Made by a program: the position numbers and the translations under genes. The notes under the pieces are model-generated. The model was not told the DNA's origin and did not search any database. It saw only the letters and a program-made list of their open reading frames with translations. Shown here piece by piece: positions 4,874-30,626 of a DNA stretch of 32,000 nt. Source of the stretch: an uncultured Methanosarcinales archaeon (GTDB taxonomy: Archaea; Nanobdellota; Nanobdellia; Woesearchaeales; UBA11576); NCBI GenBank assembly GCA_964643595.1, contig CAZXTQ010000001.1, positions 1 to 32,000 of the forward strand, read 5' to 3'. The stretch's first letter is position 1; each line of letters begins with the position of its first letter.

Positions 4874-5003
4874 TCCTTGGCTCTAAAAGACCGCTATTAA
4901 CGACCTCTTCTCCTAAATTAATCTTTTTTAGCCTCTTTTTCGATAAAAAAGCTATATTTTGCCTTTAAGTTACGAAAGGATGATTTTTTCGCATTTTAAT
5001 TAT

Positions 5004-5148
5004 ATCCTACAATGTATGTTTGAACCTTAAATAGTTTTGCATCTGTATGATTATATTTCTTCCTACTATGTGTGTATTTTATCCTACAATGTATGTAATT
5101 TGTCCTACGATGTATGTAAATAATATTTTTCATACTTACAATGTAAGT
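5004..5148. promoter_or_regulatory. Array of five 16-bp direct repeats, consensus (A/T)TCCTAC(A/T/G)ATGT(A/G)TGT. Candidate operator array.
   Basis: Copies at 5004-5019, 5060-5075, 5081-5096 and 5102-5117, plus a degenerate copy at 5133-5148. The three central copies are exactly 21 bp apart. The array lies in the intergenic region upstream of the HTH ORF on the minus strand. Confidence 0.6.
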
Positions 5149-5211: not shown

Positions 5212-6054
5212 TTATACAAGAAGTGGTGTGACAAATACTTCTATCAGTGCCGCAAGGAACAATGCGATGATTGATATTGCCATGATGTCAAGCGAGTCAA
5301 GCATCTGTTTCCTGAATTCGGGTGTTCCAAACTCATGTTTGATTACGCCTATAGATAATATGCCTCCTGCAAGCGCTCCTACAAAATAAGCGACTATTTC
5401 GAATATTCCGTGAGTCATATATTTTAGTACGCCTATAGAAACAAGCTGGGAGTATGCTCCGAAGGAGGGTACTGTGTTGACCATTACTTTGTTCCGGATA
5501 AATATGCCTATCGCAACACCAACTACGGATGCATTCCATGTGAGTATGAATATTGCGCCTGCTCCAAAGAAGAACGACATGACAAAACAGAATATCAGTA
5601 TTTTCATGTTGTTCGCAAGTATGGGCAATGCATTGCCTATTGTTGATATGAAGTTGCCTGTCGGAGTTGCGCTAGTCACCTGCGATATTGTATCGATCTG
5701 CACGCTGAATGCTTCATTCACAGTATTGACTGGAAGCACGACAAAAAGTATCAGGAATGCTGCAACAAATCCAAGAAAAAGGAAAGTGAATGCTGAGACT
5801 GCTTTGCCATGTTCTTTTATCAGCCAGTATTCTTTTTGTGGGGTGTTGTCTTTCATCGCCTCGTATTTAATCATATTATATAATAGAGGCACTGAACATA
5901 TTGCTGTAAGTGTGACCATGATCAGGCTTATGTGTTCTTTGAACACCCACCAGCTCATGAGGAATGAGAATCCTGCATATGCTAATCCGACGAGAAATAA
6001 TTCCCACGGCTCTTTTTCTGCTCTCCGAGGACTAAACAAGGATTCGAGTACCAT
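5212..6054 (-). CDS. Polytopic membrane protein, SpoIIM-like (stage II sporulation protein M / DUF95 family).
   Basis: 280-aa track ORF with about six hydrophobic segments. The motif ILANNMKILIFCFVMSFFFGAGAIFILTWNASVVGVAIG resembles SpoIIM-family proteins. Confidence 0.6.
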   Translation of the reverse strand: MVLESLFSPRRAEKEPWELFLVGLAYAGFSFLMSWWVFKEHISLIMVTLTAICSVPLLYNMIKYEAMKDNTPQKEYWLIKEHGKAVSAFTFLFLGFVAAFLILFVVLPVNTVNEAFSVQIDTISQVTSATPTGNFISTIGNALPILANNMKILIFCFVMSFFFGAGAIFILTWNASVVGVAIGIFIRNKVMVNTVPSFGAYSQLVSIGVLKYMTHGIFEIVAYFVGALAGGILSIGVIKHEFGTPEFRKQMLDSLDIMAISIIALFLAALIEVFVTPLLV

Positions 6055-6456
6055 GTATACTGTTACCTTGGTGAATTCTGTTTAAATAATTTGTGTTTAG
6101 ATGTATGTAATAAGTCTGCTGCACAAAGTGAATATGTGCCGCCTAGCTGACTGTATGTACAATAGCAACGCCGCAGCCGTCTAAAGAGCCTGTGAAATAT
6201 TATTAGATTACGATTCATGCGTGGTGGACGTTAATAGGTGGGTATTCGGTGCTCGCGACGCTGGGGCGTTGCAATTAATTTCAACTCTGCCTATCACAGT
6301 TATAGGGTGGTTCTTGACTTCACAATTCCACCAGGCATCAACATCGCGGGTGAATACACAGGTGGAATTGTAGTATTCGCAGTCTAGCTGACTCCTTACA
6401 TACCAACCGCAGAAACATTTAATAATGATTGTTCGATTAGGTGATGAAAGAGGTGT

Positions 6457-14495: not shown

Positions 14496-14589
14496 CATAT
14501 ATACCAATATTTTTATAAGGATTGCTTTATATTTTAGGTATTCTTATTAACTATGATTGTGTAGTTACTGGTTTGGTGAAGTGAAGCGT

Positions 14590-17500
14590 ATGGGGGAGAA
14601 CACAGGTCTAAGTGAGTTGGAGCATCTTGTGGAAAGGTGGCGGGTTCAGTTCAATCCTTTTGTGGAAGAACGTTTTTTGACAGGTAGAGAAATACCTGGG
14701 CGGGTTGTCCGTGAAAGTGTGGAGTATTTCTTTGAGTCGGGAGGTGAACCTGGTATTATAGCTCGAGAGTTAGGGTCTAAGTTCAGAGAATCAAGTAATA
14801 GGGGTCTTTTTGGTGTCAGTTCAATTTCTGTCGATGATCTTCTGGATGATTCAAGATTCTATACTGATGAGACTTTTGCACTGCTGTCTTTCCTGCTGAA
14901 GATTGATCGTGGAGATGCTTCTTTCTGTTTCAATTCAGTTGAATCTGAGTTGTACGATGCAGGGCATAAGCTTTATGAGGTTGCACCCCTACGCTCAAAA
15001 GTGTTTATAGAGCCTAATTCTTCAGGCAGTGTTAGTTGTCGTAATTTTGGGGCTGCGTTGGATACTATGCGGGATATCTGTTCTGAGCGGGCACAGGATA
15101 GGGGTTGGGATGTTGATAAATATGTTAATTCTCGTCTGGAGTTTTTATTCAGGATGTTCAATGTATTTATCAACAATGAAGGATTGTACATAGATCGAAA
15201 AGACCTTATTGACCCGAGATTATGGGTGCGGTATGAGGCGTCGCAGTTTTTCCTTGAGGCCTGTAAGATTGTGACAGGACGAAGCGATTTCGTCAAGATT
15301 ATGGCTGCGCGTAATTTTCCAGTATTTATCAAACTTCTTGCTAACATCTTAGATGTTGGAACTGGATTTCATGAGATAACTGGAATAGCTAACAAGTATA
15401 ATTCATTGCTGGATATTGGTCTTAAAGAGAGGGGAACTGGATATGCAGTAGTATCTGTGACTCCTTCAGATGTTCTGAGGGATATTGCAGGTAAACGTTT
15501 CAATGCGTGTATGCAGTTATCTTGTGATGTTGCTAAGTATACTATGGAGAAGATTCCTAAGCTGTACGGTCTGAATAGTTATGGATTTGTTGAAGTTTCG
15601 TGCTGTGTTGAAAATGCGATTGATTTTTCTGACCGGGCAGGGGGTATGGTGCCAAAAGGTCATATTTGTGAGTATCATTACAAATGGTTTCCTATAGCAA
15701 CAGGTTGGAGAAGGCTTTTGAACCCCGTTTTCCTCTTAGGCGCTGCTAATATTCCTTTGATACCTGCGGTAATCGGGTCTGATATGTCTTCTCTTGAGAA
15801 AGTTCTCATGATAGGTACAGGTCTGATTGCACCGTTAGGTGCTGCTGCTGTGAATAAGATATTCAACCAACAGAGGCACATAGGTGATATCGAGGAATAT
15901 CATCGTATACAGGAAAATAAAGCAGAGCAGCAACGTCATGACTTGCTCCAGCGTGAGATTGATGTGGCTAAGACCAATCTGGAACATACGTACAGCAGTC
16001 TTTATCTCATGAGTCTTCAGTACACAGATTATCTTAGGTTATTGAAGGGAGGGGATATAGATGCTGCTTTGTCTCAGATGGACACTCTCCAGGATACTGT
16101 TGTAAAGTATTTGGAAGATACTGCGTTGAAGGGTGCTCGTAACACAGGTCTTTTAGATTTTAGGCGTAAGTTGGATGATGCTGCGCTGTTCCTTGCATAT
16201 GGGCAGGCTGTCGACGGGACGTTCAATCCTCTTACTGGCAAGAGTGGTAGTGCAGTATTTCTTACAGAGTCTGATGAGAAACGTACTAACATATCTAAGC
16301 GTTTTGCTTTAAAGGAGATGGGTTCTGTCGAGGCACTGGTCTATTCCTGGTTTAGGGATAAGGGTATGAAGGAGATGATGCGGTTCCCTACTCCTGAAAT
16401 TCTTGCTTATAGGGTTGTGCCAAGTTGGGATGAATCTAAAAGTTGTATTGTTGAGGTTCCTATAATGTTGATGGAACAGATTGACGGACCTACTCTTTAT
16501 GATTTTTTCAGGATGTTGAACAATAAGACTTGTTTAGATGGTTCTGGAAATGATTTGACAAGACACTATATTGACAGTCTTAAAGATTCAGTCATAGATA
16601 GATTGTTGGAAAGGTACTGTTACCTGACGGATCAATTGCAGAGTGATGAAGAAGGTTCTCTTGGAAGACATCTTGATTTGGGGGGTGTGGTTCGTATACG
16701 CGAAGGTGCTTATATTGCCAAGACGACAGAAGTGTTTGAGGATTGTTTAATGGGTGATGCTTGTCCTGACAGTCAGAAAGAGGTATTGTACGTGGTCGCC
16801 CAGATTATAGGTGAGGTTCTGGATAAGGTGAAGAAGGTTCCGTTCATTGATATGGGTTCTTTGAACGCAAGTCTTCCTGCAAGGTCACTTTATTCCCGGC
16901 TTCTTCTTTTACATGAAGGTGTGGACGATTTCAGCGCAGAGGTTTCTGCAGTTGAAAAGCCTGCACGTACGACTATGGAGCTTGCGCTTGATGATATGGT
17001 GTCGCATATGGACGATGCAGATTTCCGCGAGAATATATTCGATGTGTGTGCTGATGAATTGGTTCGTTTTGATTTTGAGAAGCTCAGGATAGACACGTTA
17101 GAGTTTGATGACCTGAGTCATATGACTGATTTCTTGCCTTACGGTTCGTCACCAGAGCGAAGGGCTAAGGTTAATGCGAGATACCTTGCGTTGAGATATG
17201 TTGCTAAAGACGAGCCTTGCGGACAGCATATTCTGGGGCTGATTCATGAAGGTCGGACTGATGATGCTGTTGAACTCATGCGCTCGGTCATAGATTATTC
17301 TAGTATTGAGTCTGAGCGCGCACTTGTATCTATATACAGGAATCTGCGTTGGGTGCGGTTCTATTCAGACTTGGATGCTGATAAGTTTGATGATCTGCAT
17401 TCTAAAAAGCAGACTCGTGAGTATCATTTAAATATTATACTTGAGGACATAGGGGTATATCTAAGAGAGAACAGCATCGGCAGAATGCAGGATAGGGTGA

Positions 17501-17613
17501 TATCTTTGGATTCTGCTTGGCAGGATGTTTCTGATAGGGGCATCATTGGAGCTTTAAGTTACTTGAAACATTACCTGAATGGCATTATTGATGATGGGGG
17601 GGGGCAATCTTGA
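14590..17613 (+). CDS. Large (~1007 aa) membrane-hairpin protein of unknown family. N-terminal ~370-aa domain, two TM helices, a coiled coil, and a C-terminal region with protein-kinase-like motifs.
   Basis: The track ORF is 14557-17613. I prefer the ATG at 14590, which has GGTGA upstream. TM pair: LLNPVFLLGAANIPLIPAVIG and VLMIGTGLIAPLGAAAVNKIF (~15715-15870). Coiled coil: EEYHRIQENKAEQQRHDLLQREIDVAKTNLE. Kinase-like string: GKSGSAVFL, FALKE, LMEQIDGPTLYDF, FIDMGSLN, VDDFS or RFDFE. Confidence 0.7.
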   Translation: MGENTGLSELEHLVERWRVQFNPFVEERFLTGREIPGRVVRESVEYFFESGGEPGIIARELGSKFRESSNRGLFGVSSISVDDLLDDSRFYTDETFALLSFLLKIDRGDASFCFNSVESELYDAGHKLYEVAPLRSKVFIEPNSSGSVSCRNFGAALDTMRDICSERAQDRGWDVDKYVNSRLEFLFRMFNVFINNEGLYIDRKDLIDPRLWVRYEASQFFLEACKIVTGRSDFVKIMAARNFPVFIKLLANILDVGTGFHEITGIANKYNSLLDIGLKERGTGYAVVSVTPSDVLRDIAGKRFNACMQLSCDVAKYTMEKIPKLYGLNSYGFVEVSCCVENAIDFSDRAGGMVPKGHICEYHYKWFPIATGWRRLLNPVFLLGAANIPLIPAVIGSDMSSLEKVLMIGTGLIAPLGAAAVNKIFNQQRHIGDIEEYHRIQENKAEQQRHDLLQREIDVAKTNLEHTYSSLYLMSLQYTDYLRLLKGGDIDAALSQMDTLQDTVVKYLEDTALKGARNTGLLDFRRKLDDAALFLAYGQAVDGTFNPLTGKSGSAVFLTESDEKRTNISKRFALKEMGSVEALVYSWFRDKGMKEMMRFPTPEILAYRVVPSWDESKSCIVEVPIMLMEQIDGPTLYDFFRMLNNKTCLDGSGNDLTRHYIDSLKDSVIDRLLERYCYLTDQLQSDEEGSLGRHLDLGGVVRIREGAYIAKTTEVFEDCLMGDACPDSQKEVLYVVAQIIGEVLDKVKKVPFIDMGSLNASLPARSLYSRLLLLHEGVDDFSAEVSAVEKPARTTMELALDDMVSHMDDADFRENIFDVCADELVRFDFEKLRIDTLEFDDLSHMTDFLPYGSSPERRAKVNARYLALRYVAKDEPCGQHILGLIHEGRTDDAVELMRSVIDYSSIESERALVSIYRNLRWVRFYSDLDADKFDDLHSKKQTREYHLNIILEDIGVYLRENSIGRMQDRVISLDSAWQDVSDRGIIGALSYLKHYLNGIIDDGGGQS

Positions 17614-19666: not shown

Positions 19667-19814
19667 GATCTGCCACCCGTTTTTGTTTTGTTGTTTCTTT
19701 TTTACCTACACAGATATAAAATATAAATGAGTTTATAAAAGTTCGCAAAAAGAAAAAAAATATAAATGAATTTAAAGGAAATTTATAATACGGATAATAG
19801 TGATTTAAAATGTT

Positions 19815-20033
19815 ATGAATAAGCACCGTCCTAAACTGGTTGTATGCCTTACTCTAATATTCTTGTTGCTGCTAGTCGGTCTGTTGGCCAGCATGCAGTC
19901 TGGAGGCTTTGACAGCATGACTGCAGCATTAATCGGTTCAGGTCAGTCAGGCATGTCCCCTATCTCTTACGCACCTATACTTCTATTCGTAGGGTCTTTG
20001 CTGTTCGCTATATTTTATCTTGAGAAGAATTGA
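19815..20033 (+). CDS. 72-aa membrane peptide, paralog of 6457-6675, ending IFYLEKN.
   Basis: Same length and architecture as the 6457 product. TATA-like TTTATAAT at 19782-19789 is centred about 29 nt before the ATG, consistent with a leaderless transcript. Confidence 0.6.
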   Translation: MNKHRPKLVVCLTLIFLLLLVGLLASMQSGGFDSMTAALIGSGQSGMSPISYAPILLFVGSLLFAIFYLEKN

Positions 20034-20100
20034 TATTGTGTGTTCGCTTCATACTACTTTCTAATCAGACTTTACCATATTTTGGTGTTCTATCCAGTTT

Positions 20101-20271
20101 TTAGTTGGGTCTTGTTAGGTCCATGCTGTCAAGATCGTCGTCGTTCATGACTATCTCTCTGATTATCTCGACTTTTGCTTTTGATTTAGGCAATGTGTAC
20201 CTGTATCTTTCCCATTCTATACTTGGCCTGAATGATCCTTTGTGTATGTGTTGCATAAGGCATACCTCCAT
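20101..20271 (-). CDS. Possible 56-aa small protein, below the track size cutoff.
   Basis: My manual translation gives MEVCLMQHIHKGSFRPSIEWERYRYTLPKSKAKVEIIREIVMNDDDLDSMDLTRPN. A GGAGGT sits 7 nt before the internal ATG (MQHIH). It looks more protein-like than the overlapping + strand ORF 20105-20329. Confidence 0.3.
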   Translation of the reverse strand: MEVCLMQHIHKGSFRPSIEWERYRYTLPKSKAKVEIIREIVMNDDDLDSMDLTRPN

Positions 20272-20481
20272 TGTATTCAAGGCTACTAGGCTACTCGGCG
20301 ACTTTCTAGAATATCTTATGTGTGGTTAATTATGTGATTGATGGTTTACTATCACTTATCGCCTAATCCCTCACGAAGTATAGTGTAGTGAGGGCCAATG
20401 CCTACGGTGAAAACGCGCCCCAAAGATGTAGATAATATATATGGTAAATGTGGTATATAAATATTACCAAAACAGATACTA

Positions 20482-20642
20482 ATATGAAATCCTCTGCATA
20501 TTGAAAAAATAAATCTGCCCCAGGAGATTCTTCTATCTAATAACGCGATTTCAGAAGTTAGCTCGACGTAAAGATTCGGTTTAGAATATCTGTGGTCGGA
20601 TACAGTATCATCTTTATTACACTCAATAGGATTTCATAATGG
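20482..20642. mobile_element. MITE-like palindromic repeat, copy 1 (arms decayed, core intact).
   Basis: Shares tatgaaatcct...aggatttcataat termini and the invariant 28-nt core tttcagaagttagctcgacgtaaagatt (20549-20576) with the copies at 22955 and 29244. Confidence 0.65.
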
Positions 20643-20742
20643 TCTACACGTTCGCTGCGGCAGTATTGCTTTGCTCTGGAATTTATTTTGCTTCAGCCTT
20701 TCTAACATCCTTCCTCTCCGCTTTAAATATCTCACCAATAGC

Positions 20743-20750
20743 TTTATAAA
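20743..20750 (+). promoter_or_regulatory. TATA box TTTATAAA upstream of the S3Ae gene.
   Basis: Centred about 57 nt upstream of the ATG at 20804. Same octamer as at the other promoters in this window. Confidence 0.45.
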
Positions 20751-20803
20751 CACCCTCTTTCTCTATCCAAAAATACCATAAATCGTTATTGAAGGGTTTT
20801 AAT

Positions 20804-22913: not shown

Positions 22914-22954
22914 AAGAAGGTAGACTTGAGAGTGATTAATAAAGCTTACCTTAC

Positions 22955-23126
22955 GGCTATTATGAAATCCTCGGTATGTTAAAAAGATGGATACTGCCCC
23001 TGGCGACTCCAGAACCAGAATAAATCGGTTTCAGAAGTTAGCTCGACGTAAAGATTCGTTTTAGAATATCTATAGTCGCGGTGCAGTATCCATCTTTATC
23101 GCGCTGAATAGGATTTCATAATAGCC
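22955..23126. mobile_element. MITE-like palindromic repeat, copy 2 (most intact, 172 bp).
   Basis: Perfect 17-bp terminal inverted repeats: ggctattatgaaatcct (22955-22971) and aggatttcataatagcc (23110-23126). A second perfect 15-bp inverted pair lies at 22983-22997 and 23083-23097. The 28-nt conserved core is at 23029-23056. Confidence 0.7.
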
Positions 23127-23141
23127 TTATCTTACAAAACA

Positions 23142-23149
23142 TTTATAAA
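23142..23149 (+). promoter_or_regulatory. TATA box TTTATAAA upstream of trkA.
   Basis: Part of AAAACATTTATAAA (23136-23149), starting 10 nt beyond the right end of the repeat element. GGGGTG precedes the GTG at 23190. Confidence 0.45.
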
Positions 23150-25351: not shown

Positions 25352-26223
25352 ACAATTATATCAAGGCAGGCAATATTGCAGCGCAAGCTTTGGAGTTTGG
25401 CCGAGGACTTGTTAAGCCTGGGACAAAGATTCTTGACATTGCAGAAAAGATCGAGGCGAAGATAGTTGACCTCGGAGCCATGCCTGCTTTTCCTGTGAAT
25501 ATTTCTTTTGATGATACTGCTGCGCATTACACTCCTACTCCTGGAGATGATACTCTGTTTGACAAGCAGGTTGTGAAGCTTGATGTTGGTGCACATGTTG
25601 ATGGTTGTGTTGGTGGTGATACTGCGGCTACTATTGACTTGAGCGGAAAATATTCTGAGCTTGTCAAAGCTTCTCAGGACGCACTCGCTGCTGCGACAAA
25701 AGTTTTGCAGGTTGGAGCAACTCTTGGTTCTATAGGTAAGGAGATTGAGCAGGCTATTGAGTCTCATGGACTCAAGCCAGTGCGTAACCTTTCAGGTCAT
25801 GGTCTTGGAGAGTGGACTGTGCATACGGGTATAACAATACCTAACTTTGATACTGAAGACCCTACTGAGTTGGAAGATGGTATGACTATTGCTGTCGAGC
25901 CGTTCGCATCAACGGGTGTAGGTCTTATCCAGGACAGAGGCAATCCTTATATCCACTCACTTACCAACCGCAAACCAGTAAGAAACCAAGTGACAAGGCA
26001 GGTGATGAAGAAGATTGACCAGTACGGTTCTCTTCCTTTCGCGACGAGGTGGCTGGCGAAAGATCTTCCTTTGTTCAAGGTCAACTTTGCACTTAAAGAA
26101 CTGAATCAACTCGACATACTGAAATCCTATGCACCTCTTGTCGAGAAGTCTGGCGGCATTATTTCTCAGGCAGAGAACTCTTTCTATATTGGAGATAAGG
26201 TAATCACGCTGACAAAGATATGA
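25333..26223 (+). CDS. map: Type 2 (archaeal/eukaryotic) methionine aminopeptidase.
   Basis: YIKAGNIAAQALEFGRGLVKPG, AAHYTP, KLDVGAHVDGCVGGDTAATI and GHGLGEW are MetAP2-type motifs. 296 aa. Confidence 0.85.
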   Translation: MEEETLNNYIKAGNIAAQALEFGRGLVKPGTKILDIAEKIEAKIVDLGAMPAFPVNISFDDTAAHYTPTPGDDTLFDKQVVKLDVGAHVDGCVGGDTAATIDLSGKYSELVKASQDALAAATKVLQVGATLGSIGKEIEQAIESHGLKPVRNLSGHGLGEWTVHTGITIPNFDTEDPTELEDGMTIAVEPFASTGVGLIQDRGNPYIHSLTNRKPVRNQVTRQVMKKIDQYGSLPFATRWLAKDLPLFKVNFALKELNQLDILKSYAPLVEKSGGIISQAENSFYIGDKVITLTKI

Positions 26224-26226
26224 TAA
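26164..26226 (+). repeat. Left copy of a 63-bp direct repeat (the authentic 3' end of map).
   Basis: Matches 27184-27246 at an offset of exactly 1020 bp, with 3 mismatches (26193, 26219, 26221). Confidence 0.85.
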
Positions 26227-26381: not shown

Positions 26382-26972
26382 ATGCAGAATGCATATCATA
26401 TTGAAAATGGCGCTATTGTTATGAAACGGGAACTGACTGATTTAGACAGGTTTGTCAAGGATTTCCTTGAAGTATTGCAGAATCATTCGTGTCATTTGAT
26501 TGTTAGCGGTTTTGTCAGCATTTCTTCAGGAAGGACTCGAGGAACAGAAGATGTTGATGTCTTGGTACCTGTCATGGGAAAATCAAAATTTATTGAATTG
26601 TTCAAGAATCTGCAAGAATCAGGTTTTTGGTGCTACCAGGGGGAGACTGCAGAAGAAGTGTATGATTATTTCAAAGAGTTGTCAAGCATAAGGTTTGCAA
26701 GGACTGATGAATTATTTCCTAATATGGAAGTCATTCCTATAGATGAGACAAGAAAAGCTAAATTTTTTGAATTTAATCATCCGCAGAAGATGCGAGTACA
26801 GGATTTTGAGTTTAATATTCCTCCAATAGAATTTGAGATAATGTATAAGGAAATGGTATTGAAAGGTAAGAAAGATATTGAAGATGCACGTCATTTGAGA
26901 GTGATGTTTTCAGAATTGATTAACAAGGGTAAGTTCAAAGAGTATGAACTTGTTATAAAACAGGAGTTATGA
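26382..26972 (+). CDS. Nucleotidyltransferase-fold protein (MNT/AbiEii-like minimal NTase).
   Basis: SGFVSISSGRTRGTEDVDVLV fits the pol-beta NTase pattern G[SG]x(9-13)DxD. Encoded inside the repeat-bounded cassette. Confidence 0.5.
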   Translation: MQNAYHIENGAIVMKRELTDLDRFVKDFLEVLQNHSCHLIVSGFVSISSGRTRGTEDVDVLVPVMGKSKFIELFKNLQESGFWCYQGETAEEVYDYFKELSSIRFARTDELFPNMEVIPIDETRKAKFFEFNHPQKMRVQDFEFNIPPIEFEIMYKEMVLKGKKDIEDARHLRVMFSELINKGKFKEYELVIKQEL

Positions 26973-27183: not shown

Positions 27184-27246
27184 TCTCAGGCAGAGAACTC
27201 TTTCTATATTGGTGATAAGGTAATCACGCTGACAAAGACAGGATAA
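27184..27246 (+). pseudogene. Right copy of the 63-bp repeat, an orphan duplicate of the map 3' end (would encode ...SQAENSFYIGDKVITLTKTG*).
   Basis: Near-identical to 26164-26226. No upstream ORF is joined to it. Confidence 0.8.
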
Positions 27247-29221: not shown

Positions 29222-29229
29222 TTTATAAA
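29222..29229 (-). promoter_or_regulatory. TATA box TTTATAAA for hisS (leaderless geometry).
   Basis: On the minus strand it is part of AAAACATTTATAAA (complement of 29222-29235), starting 9 nt from the left end of repeat copy 3. Confidence 0.5.
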
Positions 29230-29243
29230 TGTTTTCGATTTAT

Positions 29244-29393
29244 GGCTATTATGAAATCCTCAGCGTATTGAAAAGATGAATGCTGCCCCTGGCGACTTTA
29301 TTATCATAATAAATCGGGTTTCAGAAGTTAGCTCGACGTAAAGATTTGGTTTAGAACATCTATGGTTGCGGTGCTGCTATTATCGAGCTGAAC
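29244..29393. mobile_element. MITE-like palindromic repeat, copy 3 (left TIR intact, right TIR lost).
   Basis: Begins ggctattatgaaatcct (29244-29260) and carries the core at 29319-29346. The right arm degenerates after ...tcgagctgaac. Confidence 0.6.
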
Positions 29394-29420
29394 AAATAAA
29401 AAATGATTGTTGAGCGCATA

Positions 29421-29520
29421 CTCCGCAGCTTGCTGCGGAGATGAGGTCAACACCAAAAACCACGTGCAAAAATACGGGTCATGTTGCTTATAGCAACATA
29501 CCCCGTAGCTTGCTGCGGGG
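29421..29520 (-). terminator. Paired GC-rich hairpins plus one AT hairpin downstream of the 359-aa gene. Candidate terminator region.
   Basis: Hairpins ctccgcag-cttg-ctgcggag (29421-29440), atgttgc-ttata-gcaacat (29481-29499) and ccccgtag-cttg-ctgcgggg (29501-29520). T-runs follow on both strands. Confidence 0.4.
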
Positions 29521-29546: not shown

Positions 29547-30626
29547 TTATCTCTTCCTGTTTTTGCTGAAGTAGAAGTTTCGCCATCCGCGTTTCAGTTT
29601 CCGCTTTTCGCGTCTTTCTTTCTCTTCTTTTGAAATCAGTGCTTTTTGTTTTGTTGCAGTTCTCTTGACGGCGGGTGCAGGCGGTCTTTGTTCTGATCTT
29701 TCTTCTTTCTGTACTCTTGCGACAAGGTCTCTTCCGATGTTCTGTGTTTCTGTCGGGCCTCTGACAACAAGGCCTTTCGCACTTTGGTTATACACGTCGA
29801 GGACAAGTTTTCTTAATTCCATGGGCGTGATTATCCTGTCTCTGATGCTGTCTGCATCCTGGAGTGCTTTGAGTCTGAAACTTTCAGGTATTCTCGCGTT
29901 AGCTCTCTTCTGTGCGTAGAACTTTCCGTCTCGGTTTTCTATTTTAACTGTGCCTGCGTATATGCCTGCTATTGTCATTAGTGTATTCTTGTTGTTTTCA
30001 AGAATCAGGTATCCGTCTTGGTACGTCTTCAAATGAGATTTCTGCACGAATGCTGCCTGCTTCTTGTATTGTTCAGTCGCGTCTGCAGCGACGGTAGGTT
30101 TTGCTGCCATTCGCTTGTCGTGTTTGAATCCTGAGCTTTTTGAAGATGCCTTTGGATGAGCTTTAGCCACAGCAGGCATTTCTTCTCGTGGAGGTATGTA
30201 ATCTGCTGATCTTCCTTCTTTGATGTTATGATAGATGTTCTTTGTAAGCCAGACTATTTCAGGAAACGTGATTATGTTGTCGCGGTTCTGGTCAGCGTCG
30301 TTCAGGACTCTTTCAAGTGCTGCTTCATAATCGTCTGTTGCCATGGATGTGCCTTCAGGTATGTTAACCCTGAACCCATCGTTCAATTTTTCTACTTCGC
30401 CGATTCCTGCGTAGACTGCGGCAAGCGGTCTTAATCTCTGGGTGTCTGTTTGCCTGAGCGCTCTGTTGCGGAGGTATCCTACGCGGGAGCTGTGTGTCCT
30501 GAGGATTTCTGATGCTTCTTGTTTTGTGGGTGCGGTCATCGCGGGTGTTATATTCACTCTGCTGGTCGCACATCCTTCAGAAGCTAATGCTGCTACTGCG
30601 AGTGCCAGTGTGTATAGTGCTTTCAT
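29547..30626 (-). CDS. Secreted or lipoprotein-like protein with an internal duplication, one EF-hand-type Ca-binding loop and a highly basic C-tail.
   Basis: Signal MKALYTLALAVAALASEGC. DQNRDNIITFPEI matches the EF-hand loop pattern (D-x-N-x-D-x-x-I-x-x-x-E). A second degenerate copy reads DADSIRDRIITPMEL. Confidence 0.6.
   Translation of the reverse strand: MKALYTLALAVAALASEGCATSRVNITPAMTAPTKQEASEILRTHSSRVGYLRNRALRQTDTQRLRPLAAVYAGIGEVEKLNDGFRVNIPEGTSMATDDYEAALERVLNDADQNRDNIITFPEIVWLTKNIYHNIKEGRSADYIPPREEMPAVAKAHPKASSKSSGFKHDKRMAAKPTVAADATEQYKKQAAFVQKSHLKTYQDGYLILENNKNTLMTIAGIYAGTVKIENRDGKFYAQKRANARIPESFRLKALQDADSIRDRIITPMELRKLVLDVYNQSAKGLVVRGPTETQNIGRDLVARVQKEERSEQRPPAPAVKRTATKQKALISKEEKERREKRKLKRGWRNFYFSKNRKR

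Follow-up and report, generated by a model that had tools for sequence, protein, structure and literature searches.

A probable MITE family with the ends of an IS5-family insertion sequence lies just upstream of gene promoters in Woesearchaeota

We analyzed a stretch of archaeal DNA of 32,000 nucleotides, called here the window. The host, judged from the homologues of its HisRS, is an archaeon of the Woesearchaeota (DPANN). Hundreds of these homologues were named Candidatus Woesearchaeota or Nanoarchaeota, the closest being 84% (relatives L002-L004) and 80% (relative L001) identical. The window also contains genes typical of archaea, which encode S3Ae, type-2 MetAP, a Bud32-like kinase, TrkA and TrkH. 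The order of the genes around hisS, map, trkH and trkA is conserved in the four relatives.

Some features of the window were recorded in their own right. A direct repeat of 112 bp (83% identical) occupies positions 1-112 and 1549-1660, where the ORFs are small and have no Pfam matches. A SpoIIM-like gene (5212-6054) is flanked by copies of a 21-bp repeat (ATTTTATCCTACAATGTATGT-like) within 4999-5119 and 6087-6110. These copies form a cluster upstream of this gene, some of them in tandem with 21-bp spacing, with one more copy downstream, and may be binding sites for a regulator. A 1018-aa ORF (14557-17613) matched no Pfam family at E <= 0.01 and is followed by an overlapping 293-aa ORF that was also unmatched. 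Further, the 3' end of the MetAP gene is duplicated 1020 bp downstream as a direct repeat of 63 bp (95% identical, 26164-26226 and 27184-27246), which encloses an ORF without a Pfam match (26382-26972). An insertion seems to have entered the end of map and to have regenerated the gene terminus. In the relative L001 map directly adjoins hisS.

The first-pass annotation described a palindromic family of three copies in this DNA and read it as non-autonomous MITEs. We confirmed the three copies of an element of about 170 bp (150-172 bp), all on the plus strand, all intergenic, placed within 9 kb beside different genes, and refined their coordinates. No ORF of at least 25 codons is conserved across the copies. 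The second copy (22955-23126) is intact and 172 bp long. Its left terminal inverted repeat (TIR), GGCTATTATGAAATCCT (22955-22971, plus strand), is the same 17-mer that ends MITEs and insertion sequences (ISs) in other archaeal genomes, and its right TIR (23110-23126, minus strand) is the exact reverse complement of the left one. A second perfect inverted pair, of 15 bp (22983-22997 and 23083-23097), lies inside. Both pairs had been reported before and were found as described.

The remaining two copies were correctly called decayed. Copy 1 (20477-20644 after refinement, 80% identical to copy 2) has both termini mutated, the left reading TACTAATATGAAATCCT and the right, as reverse complement, GACCATTATGAAATCCT, with 3 and 2 mismatches to the TIR. 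Copy 3 (29244-29393) has an intact left TIR, has about 6 nt deleted in the right arm and has lost the right TIR. Copy 2 is still structurally competent, while copies 1 and 3 are dead relics whose ends were mutated or deleted. The three copies share one interior of about 140 bp, which is 80-85% identical. No transposase was found in the window, either by Pfam scans of 30 ORFs or by tblastn with the transposase of the partner element described below, in agreement with the earlier view that the elements are non-autonomous.

A fourth relic had been proposed at 20297-20325. The collinear 9-mer and 10-mer on which this proposal was built are present, yet an event of this kind occurred in 61 of 300 Markov shuffles of the window and nhmmer was negative, and we rejected this candidate as not above chance. 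The same part of the window includes a stretch of 1.1 kb (19667-20788) with no ORF of at least 80 codons, no Rfam match and no tRNA according to ARAGORN. It contains a G+C-rich hairpin, ccctcac...gtgaggg, at about 20369-20395 with a fold z-score of only -0.8. The stretch may contain a small gene, or a transcribed RNA that is not annotated. Elsewhere in the window, the gene of the Bud32-like kinase is separated from copy 3 by a 359-aa ORF without a Pfam match (29547-30626). In the relative L002 this ORF is missing and the kinase gene lies directly beside the hisS promoter. Copy 3 may have lost its right end when the ORF arrived. The apparent terminator of the ORF is a hairpin with a T-run behind it, at about 29405-29440.

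Conservation within the element is uneven. Identity between copies is 93-96% in a non-palindromic core of 45 nt (23027-23071 in copy 2, plus strand) and only 41-80% in the arms. The core contains an invariant 28-mer, TTTCAGAAGTTAGCTCGACGTAAAGATT (23029-23056), which occurs exactly three times in the window, compared with 0 expected from 100 shuffles; among 20,000 column shuffles, 14 reached an invariant run of 28 nt. If a selfish element simply decayed neutrally, its core would not be expected to be better conserved than the arms, and this counts against a plain MITE reading. The core may act in cis as a site that the active lineage requires, or it may have acquired a host function. Exact 21-mers and 22-mers of the core were absent from the collections of genomes, metagenomes and viral contigs, so the interior of the window family is not present in these collections. 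A blastn search of copy 2 against plasmids gave no match.

We considered whether the repeats are structured ncRNA genes, or a regulatory palindrome selected beside certain genes, and not mobile DNA. The conserved core would fit such a role, as would the common orientation of the three copies, all of which adjoin promoters, and the fold of copy 2, which forms a very stable hairpin on either strand (-70 kcal/mol, z = -7.7). However, the folds of copies 1 and 3 are not more stable than those of shuffled sequence on either strand (z from -1.1 to +0.3 on the plus strand), and the changes in their arms are not compensatory. The description of the family as hairpin-forming therefore held for copy 2 but not for copies 1 and 3, in which the hairpin is not conserved. 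Since only copy 2 forms the long hairpin, a selected structured RNA is unlikely. There was also no Rfam match at the gathering threshold in the whole window, and permissive E-values on the element, as well as on the two metagenome elements L005 and L006 described below, corresponded to generic long-hairpin noise. ARAGORN identified no tRNA in the DNA examined. Taken with the empty sites, the target duplications, the IS ends and the direction of the neighbouring promoters, all presented below, these results make the RNA or palindrome explanation very improbable. Retron ncRNA, C/D-box RNA and IS200/IS605 PATE or omega-RNA were dropped as candidates, as there is no RT or TnpB nearby and Rfam was empty. 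An IS200/IS605 identity is also a misfit with perfect TIRs and 9-bp duplications.

Copy 2 is flanked by a 9-bp target-site duplication, TTACCTTAC on the left (22946-22954) and TTATCTTAC on the right (23127-23135), which match at 8 of 9 positions. The duplication of TA or TTA that had been guessed earlier was wrong; the actual duplication is 9 bp long. The 9-mers that flank copy 1 match at 2 of 9 positions and are not recognisable as a duplication. The window offers only one copy with both ends, whose duplication is 8/9 and not 9/9, and both this and the missing duplication of copy 1 count against the MITE reading. We tested 27 complete TIR-bounded elements. Two of these were window copies 1 and 2, and 25, the full-length IS in L097 among them, came from other archaeal loci. 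In 22 of the 27 the flanking 9-mers agreed at 7 or more of 9 positions, 13 perfectly, while displaced control 9-mers gave mostly 0-4 matches.

The relatives showed what these sites look like without an element. The right 9-mer of copy 2 occurs once in L002 and in L001, directly before aaaacatttataaa, and the trkA promoter is uninterrupted in both. The hisS promoter of L001 and L002 is likewise uninterrupted, and nhmmer detected no copy of the element in L001-L004. The first-pass annotation had named conserved synteny of the element in relatives as the pattern that would indicate a regulatory palindrome. We observed instead that relatives carry the trkA and hisS promoters without it, which supports the mobile-element reading and argues against ncRNA genes or a palindrome selected at these promoters.

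We found the same TIR in other archaea. A gapped TIR pattern, scanned against metagenomes with a gap of 105-135, matched two elements, L005 and L006, in different gene contexts; the gap of copy 2 is 138, and elements of that length would have escaped this pattern. These two elements have the TIR GGCTCTTATGAAATCCT and an interior with 55% G+C that is unrelated to the window family. The single 17-mer was found in at least 114 stretches of GTDB species genomes, with 26 loci in the MAG CAYMIF01 and 13 in the Woesearchaeota MAG JAUUYB01. The MITEs of CAYMIF01 are 122/123, 187 and 279 bp long and those of JAUUYB01 165/166 and 209/210 bp, and these families have the same ends and unrelated interiors. 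Many matches to the 17-mer lie about 40-50 nt from contig ends, as a multicopy repeat would give. The bacterial matches were single and had none of these features. Five matches in viral contigs, four of them in the same gene, had no partner TIR and were judged to be chance.

Two side observations concern these elements. The MITEs at L005:2052-2218 and L006:1471-1638 have multi-branched interiors with a G+C content of 55%, while their genomes have 35-39%. Their folding energies are -68 to -71 kcal/mol (z from -3.7 to -6.1), and the interior contains CTCGTCGA...CGACGAGGGGG, which resembles the leader of the full-length IS described below. CAYMIF01 (L014-L122), the genome in which copies of the identical 17-bp TIR are most numerous, has the title 'uncultured Methanosarcinales archaeon', which is a phylum other than Woesearchaeota. 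Either the IS spread horizontally or this MAG was mislabelled or mis-binned.

A search for an autonomous IS with the same TIRs, which had been suggested as a check, was successful. No partner from the genome of the window was seen, which is a point against the MITE reading; the nearest full-length ISs belong to other Woesearchaeota. In L097 (Ca. Woesearchaeota AB_69_Bin_160), positions 1586-2607 hold an IS of 1022 bp that is bounded by the same TIRs and has a perfect duplication, CTACAAAAC. A frameshift in a G-run interrupts its only ORF, which after repair encodes 305 aa and runs into the right TIR. The product matched the NCBIfam model NF033579 (IS5 family) with 161 bits at a cutoff of 140, and the Pfam families DDE_Tnp_1 (PF01609, E = 1e-15) and DUF772 (PF05598, E = 1.4e-5). 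Seven further ISs of full length (1015-1024 bp) end in TIRs that are the same or slightly diverged, and they too have 9-bp duplications. At least 590 clusters of homologous transposases are present in the protein database. The best 120 of these are about 305 aa long (301-318) and 72-90% identical, and most lie on contigs of about 1 kb; some clusters bear the name IS5 family transposase of Woesearchaeota or Nanoarchaeota. Among annotated transposases of cultured organisms, the nearest are IS5-family proteins of haloarchaea and Methanomethylovorans, with 32-35% identity. The 9-bp target duplication and the GGC-starting TIRs of about 18 bp are traits of the IS903 group, and the partner is an IS5-family IS with IS903-like architecture.

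The 5' leaders of the full-length ISs were compared in L097:1586-1700, L126:1-115, L131:2403-2515, L136, L137, L140 and L141. Common to them are a TATA-like box and, behind it, a conserved inverted repeat, CTCGTCGA...TCGACGAGGTGA, which ends just before the transposase ATG. The hairpin formed by this repeat would cover a Shine-Dalgarno-like GAGGTGA, and this arrangement suggests translational control of the transposase. We did not accept homology between the core of the window family and this leader (CTCGTCGA...TCGACGAGGTGA), as the two share TCGACG and a few bases in two incompatible alignments. Further, L137, L138 and L139 contain the same IS with swapped flank combinations of two insertion sites (GGNGAAGAA and GTTTTAATA), which reflect either recombination between IS copies or assembly chimeras.

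The presence of partner ISs in the phylum allows another origin of the small elements, in which each copy is a full-length IS that was gutted in place and was never mobile as a small element. Copy 3 is an example of internal and terminal deletion. But one interior of about 140 bp is common to the three copies, which independent deletions would not produce, and this interior has no convincing similarity to the interiors or leaders of the ISs. In other genomes, small copies that are almost identical occur in large numbers at different sites, and each of them has a duplication of its own. We consider deletion in place improbable in the extreme. The MITE reading is supported by the TIRs shared with the IS, the 9-bp duplications, the empty sites in relatives and the lack of any gene within the element; the duplication, the partner IS and the empty sites uphold what the first-pass annotation proposed. 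Ends in common with a transposase-encoding IS and flanking 9-bp duplications are also not what ncRNA genes or a selected palindrome would be expected to have.

All three window copies lie next to a TATA box. To the right of copy 2 the order is TTATCTTAC, then an A-rich BRE-like aaaaca, then the TATA box of the trkA promoter, TTTATAAA (23142-23149, plus strand), which starts 6 nt past the duplication and is also present in the relatives. A TATA box, TTTATATA (20454-20461, minus strand), lies 6 nt past the left flanking 9-mer of copy 1 and faces away from the element; there is no ORF of at least 60 codons downstream of it. At copy 3 the TATA box of the hisS promoter, TTTATAAA (29222-29229, minus strand), lies 5 nt past the flanking 9-mer TCGATTTAT. 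The hisS ATG follows its TATA box by about 24 nt, so the hisS mRNA is leaderless. The offsets at copies 1, 2 and 3 are thus 6, 6 and 5 nt. This constant placement with respect to promoters had not been noticed in the first-pass annotation.

The same position was occupied in other archaeal loci. We read the flanks outward from every occurrence of the TIR. The motif TTTWWAW started at outward position 15 in 19 of 81 flanks, with counts of 3, 3 and 3 at the adjoining positions; it started at positions 13-17 in 29 flanks and at positions 18-37 in only 1. It was present in 24 of 77 archaeal flanks compared with 0 of 70 bacterial chance flanks (Fisher p = 2.5e-8), and intervals of equal size farther out in the same flanks contained 0, 0, 0 and 1 motif. 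Among 33 complete MITEs and ISs, 26 had TTTWWAWA with at least 7 of 8 matches at offset 5-7 on one flank (18 perfect), while 3 of 33 had it at a control offset; the other 7 had no good TATA box at the expected offset.

The boxes point outward, and ORF starts cluster 45-46 nt from the TIR, as leaderless mRNAs would give. We conclude that the TATA boxes beside the elements are real promoters. As they face away from the element, the promoter and its gene stay intact. Such promoters would not transcribe the element, which is a further point against ncRNA genes. No insertion between a TATA box and its gene was observed in the 81 flanks. The side on which the TATA box lies is independent of the orientation of the element: MITEs were found both ways, and six full-length ISs have the box on the right and two on the left. 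We therefore rejected a rule of orientation with the transposase gene always directed at the promoter beside it. The choice of target is not random in these sequences, as shown statistically, the 9-bp target lying immediately upstream of the BRE/TATA promoter of the neighbouring gene. Overall, it is very probable that the repeats are MITEs derived from an IS5-family IS common in Woesearchaeota and Nanoarchaeota, with a target just upstream of a gene promoter.

The elements may be real MITEs that land at random, of which only the harmless insertions upstream of BRE/TATA survive in a compact genome. The intergenic spacers in these genomes are short, and the gap tolerated between the divergent TATA boxes at copy 2 is only 17 nt. 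Survival would also account for the lack of insertions between a TATA box and its gene, and the data consist of fixed insertions and none that are de novo. Yet the offset is exactly 6 nt in most cases, with a peak at one position, while selection would yield a sharp boundary with a tail and not a spike. The opposite flank is often free of long ORFs for 80-357 nt, and insertion there would be equally harmless. Because the far side often has this free intergenic space, survival alone does not explain the single-nucleotide spacing, and we regard it as an unlikely explanation, although purifying selection against disruptive insertions certainly contributes to the promoter anchoring.

For MITEs with a true insertion target we propose the following sequence of events. 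A transposase supplied in trans by a full-length IS elsewhere in the genome would bind the TIRs, excise or copy the element and join it to staggered cuts made 9 bp apart; the binding and the 9-bp staggered insertion follow what is generally known of IS4/IS5-type DDE transposases. The transposase complex could be positioned by the A-rich BRE and TATA sequence or by the bent complex of TBP and TFB with the promoter, and the site upstream of the promoter would serve as a harmless landing place in a tightly packed genome. We suggest only tentatively, from the spacing in the sequences, that the transposase may read such a landmark of pre-initiation (the BRE/TATA sequence or the TBP/TFB-bent complex) and integrate about 37-45 bp upstream of the transcription start. 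The TBP/TFB-bent complex is the more interesting of the two landmarks. The targeting machinery may have a second cis-acting site in the 45-nt core of the window family.

The partner resembles IS903 (IS5 family, IS903 group), whose traits are taken here as they are generally known from the ISfinder families. It is a compact IS of about 1.0 kb with one DDE ORF of about 305 aa that reaches the right end, TIRs of 17-18 bp that start with GGC, and a 9-bp duplication. It differs in its host, a DPANN archaeon, and in its target, which lies at a fixed distance from an archaeal TATA box. The reported preference of IS903 is a symmetric pattern around the duplication, and we know of no description of targeting at a fixed distance from a TATA box for it.

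MITEs are known from Sulfolobus, Halobacterium and Haloquadratum, and the Correia elements of Neisseria are a further example (PMC10969869). The present elements are like these in being small, non-coding, bounded by TIRs with target duplications, multicopy and mostly intergenic, in that a hairpin is often possible and in having ends in common with an autonomous IS. They differ in that they form a new sequence family, with several unrelated interiors under one TIR, and in that they lie at a single-nucleotide-defined spacing from promoters. Correia elements carry promoters, whereas the present elements sit beside those of the host. In the literature that we searched there was no report of a MITE in Woesearchaeota and, recent reviews included, none of promoter- or TATA-directed IS insertion in archaea. 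The MITE itself is ordinary, one more of a well-known class, and the promoter-anchored insertion is the part of interest.

Directed integration is familiar from eukaryotes, where TFIIIB directs Ty3 to the start sites of Pol III, Ty1 inserts upstream of genes transcribed by Pol III, and Pol II promoters are the target of Tf1. The elements described here share with them a narrow position relative to an initiation complex of TBP and a TFIIB-like factor and, as the probable gain, a safe haven in a gene-dense genome. The eukaryotic cases involve retrotransposon integrases, and their tethering by host factors was shown experimentally, whereas the present case concerns an archaeal DDE IS of the cut-and-paste type that is known from sequence-level spacing. 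If true, it would be a prokaryotic DDE-transposon counterpart of promoter-tethered integration of the Ty3/TFIIIB type, and a promoter-proximal safe haven in archaea.

In summary, the mobile elements of Woesearchaeota (DPANN) have barely been described, and the target rule matters as it concerns an abundant archaeal IS and its MITEs, which lie at a single-nucleotide-defined distance from the TATA box and leave the promoter intact. If the rule is mechanistic, it would explain how transposons persist in very gene-dense, reduced genomes, and insertion sites would annotate real promoters and leaderless starts in uncultured archaea. It would also provide a simple DDE transposase with which targeting by TBP/TFB or by promoter DNA shape could be tested in vitro, and it would bear on the evolution of promoter-tethered integration and on tools for promoter-proximal insertion in archaea.
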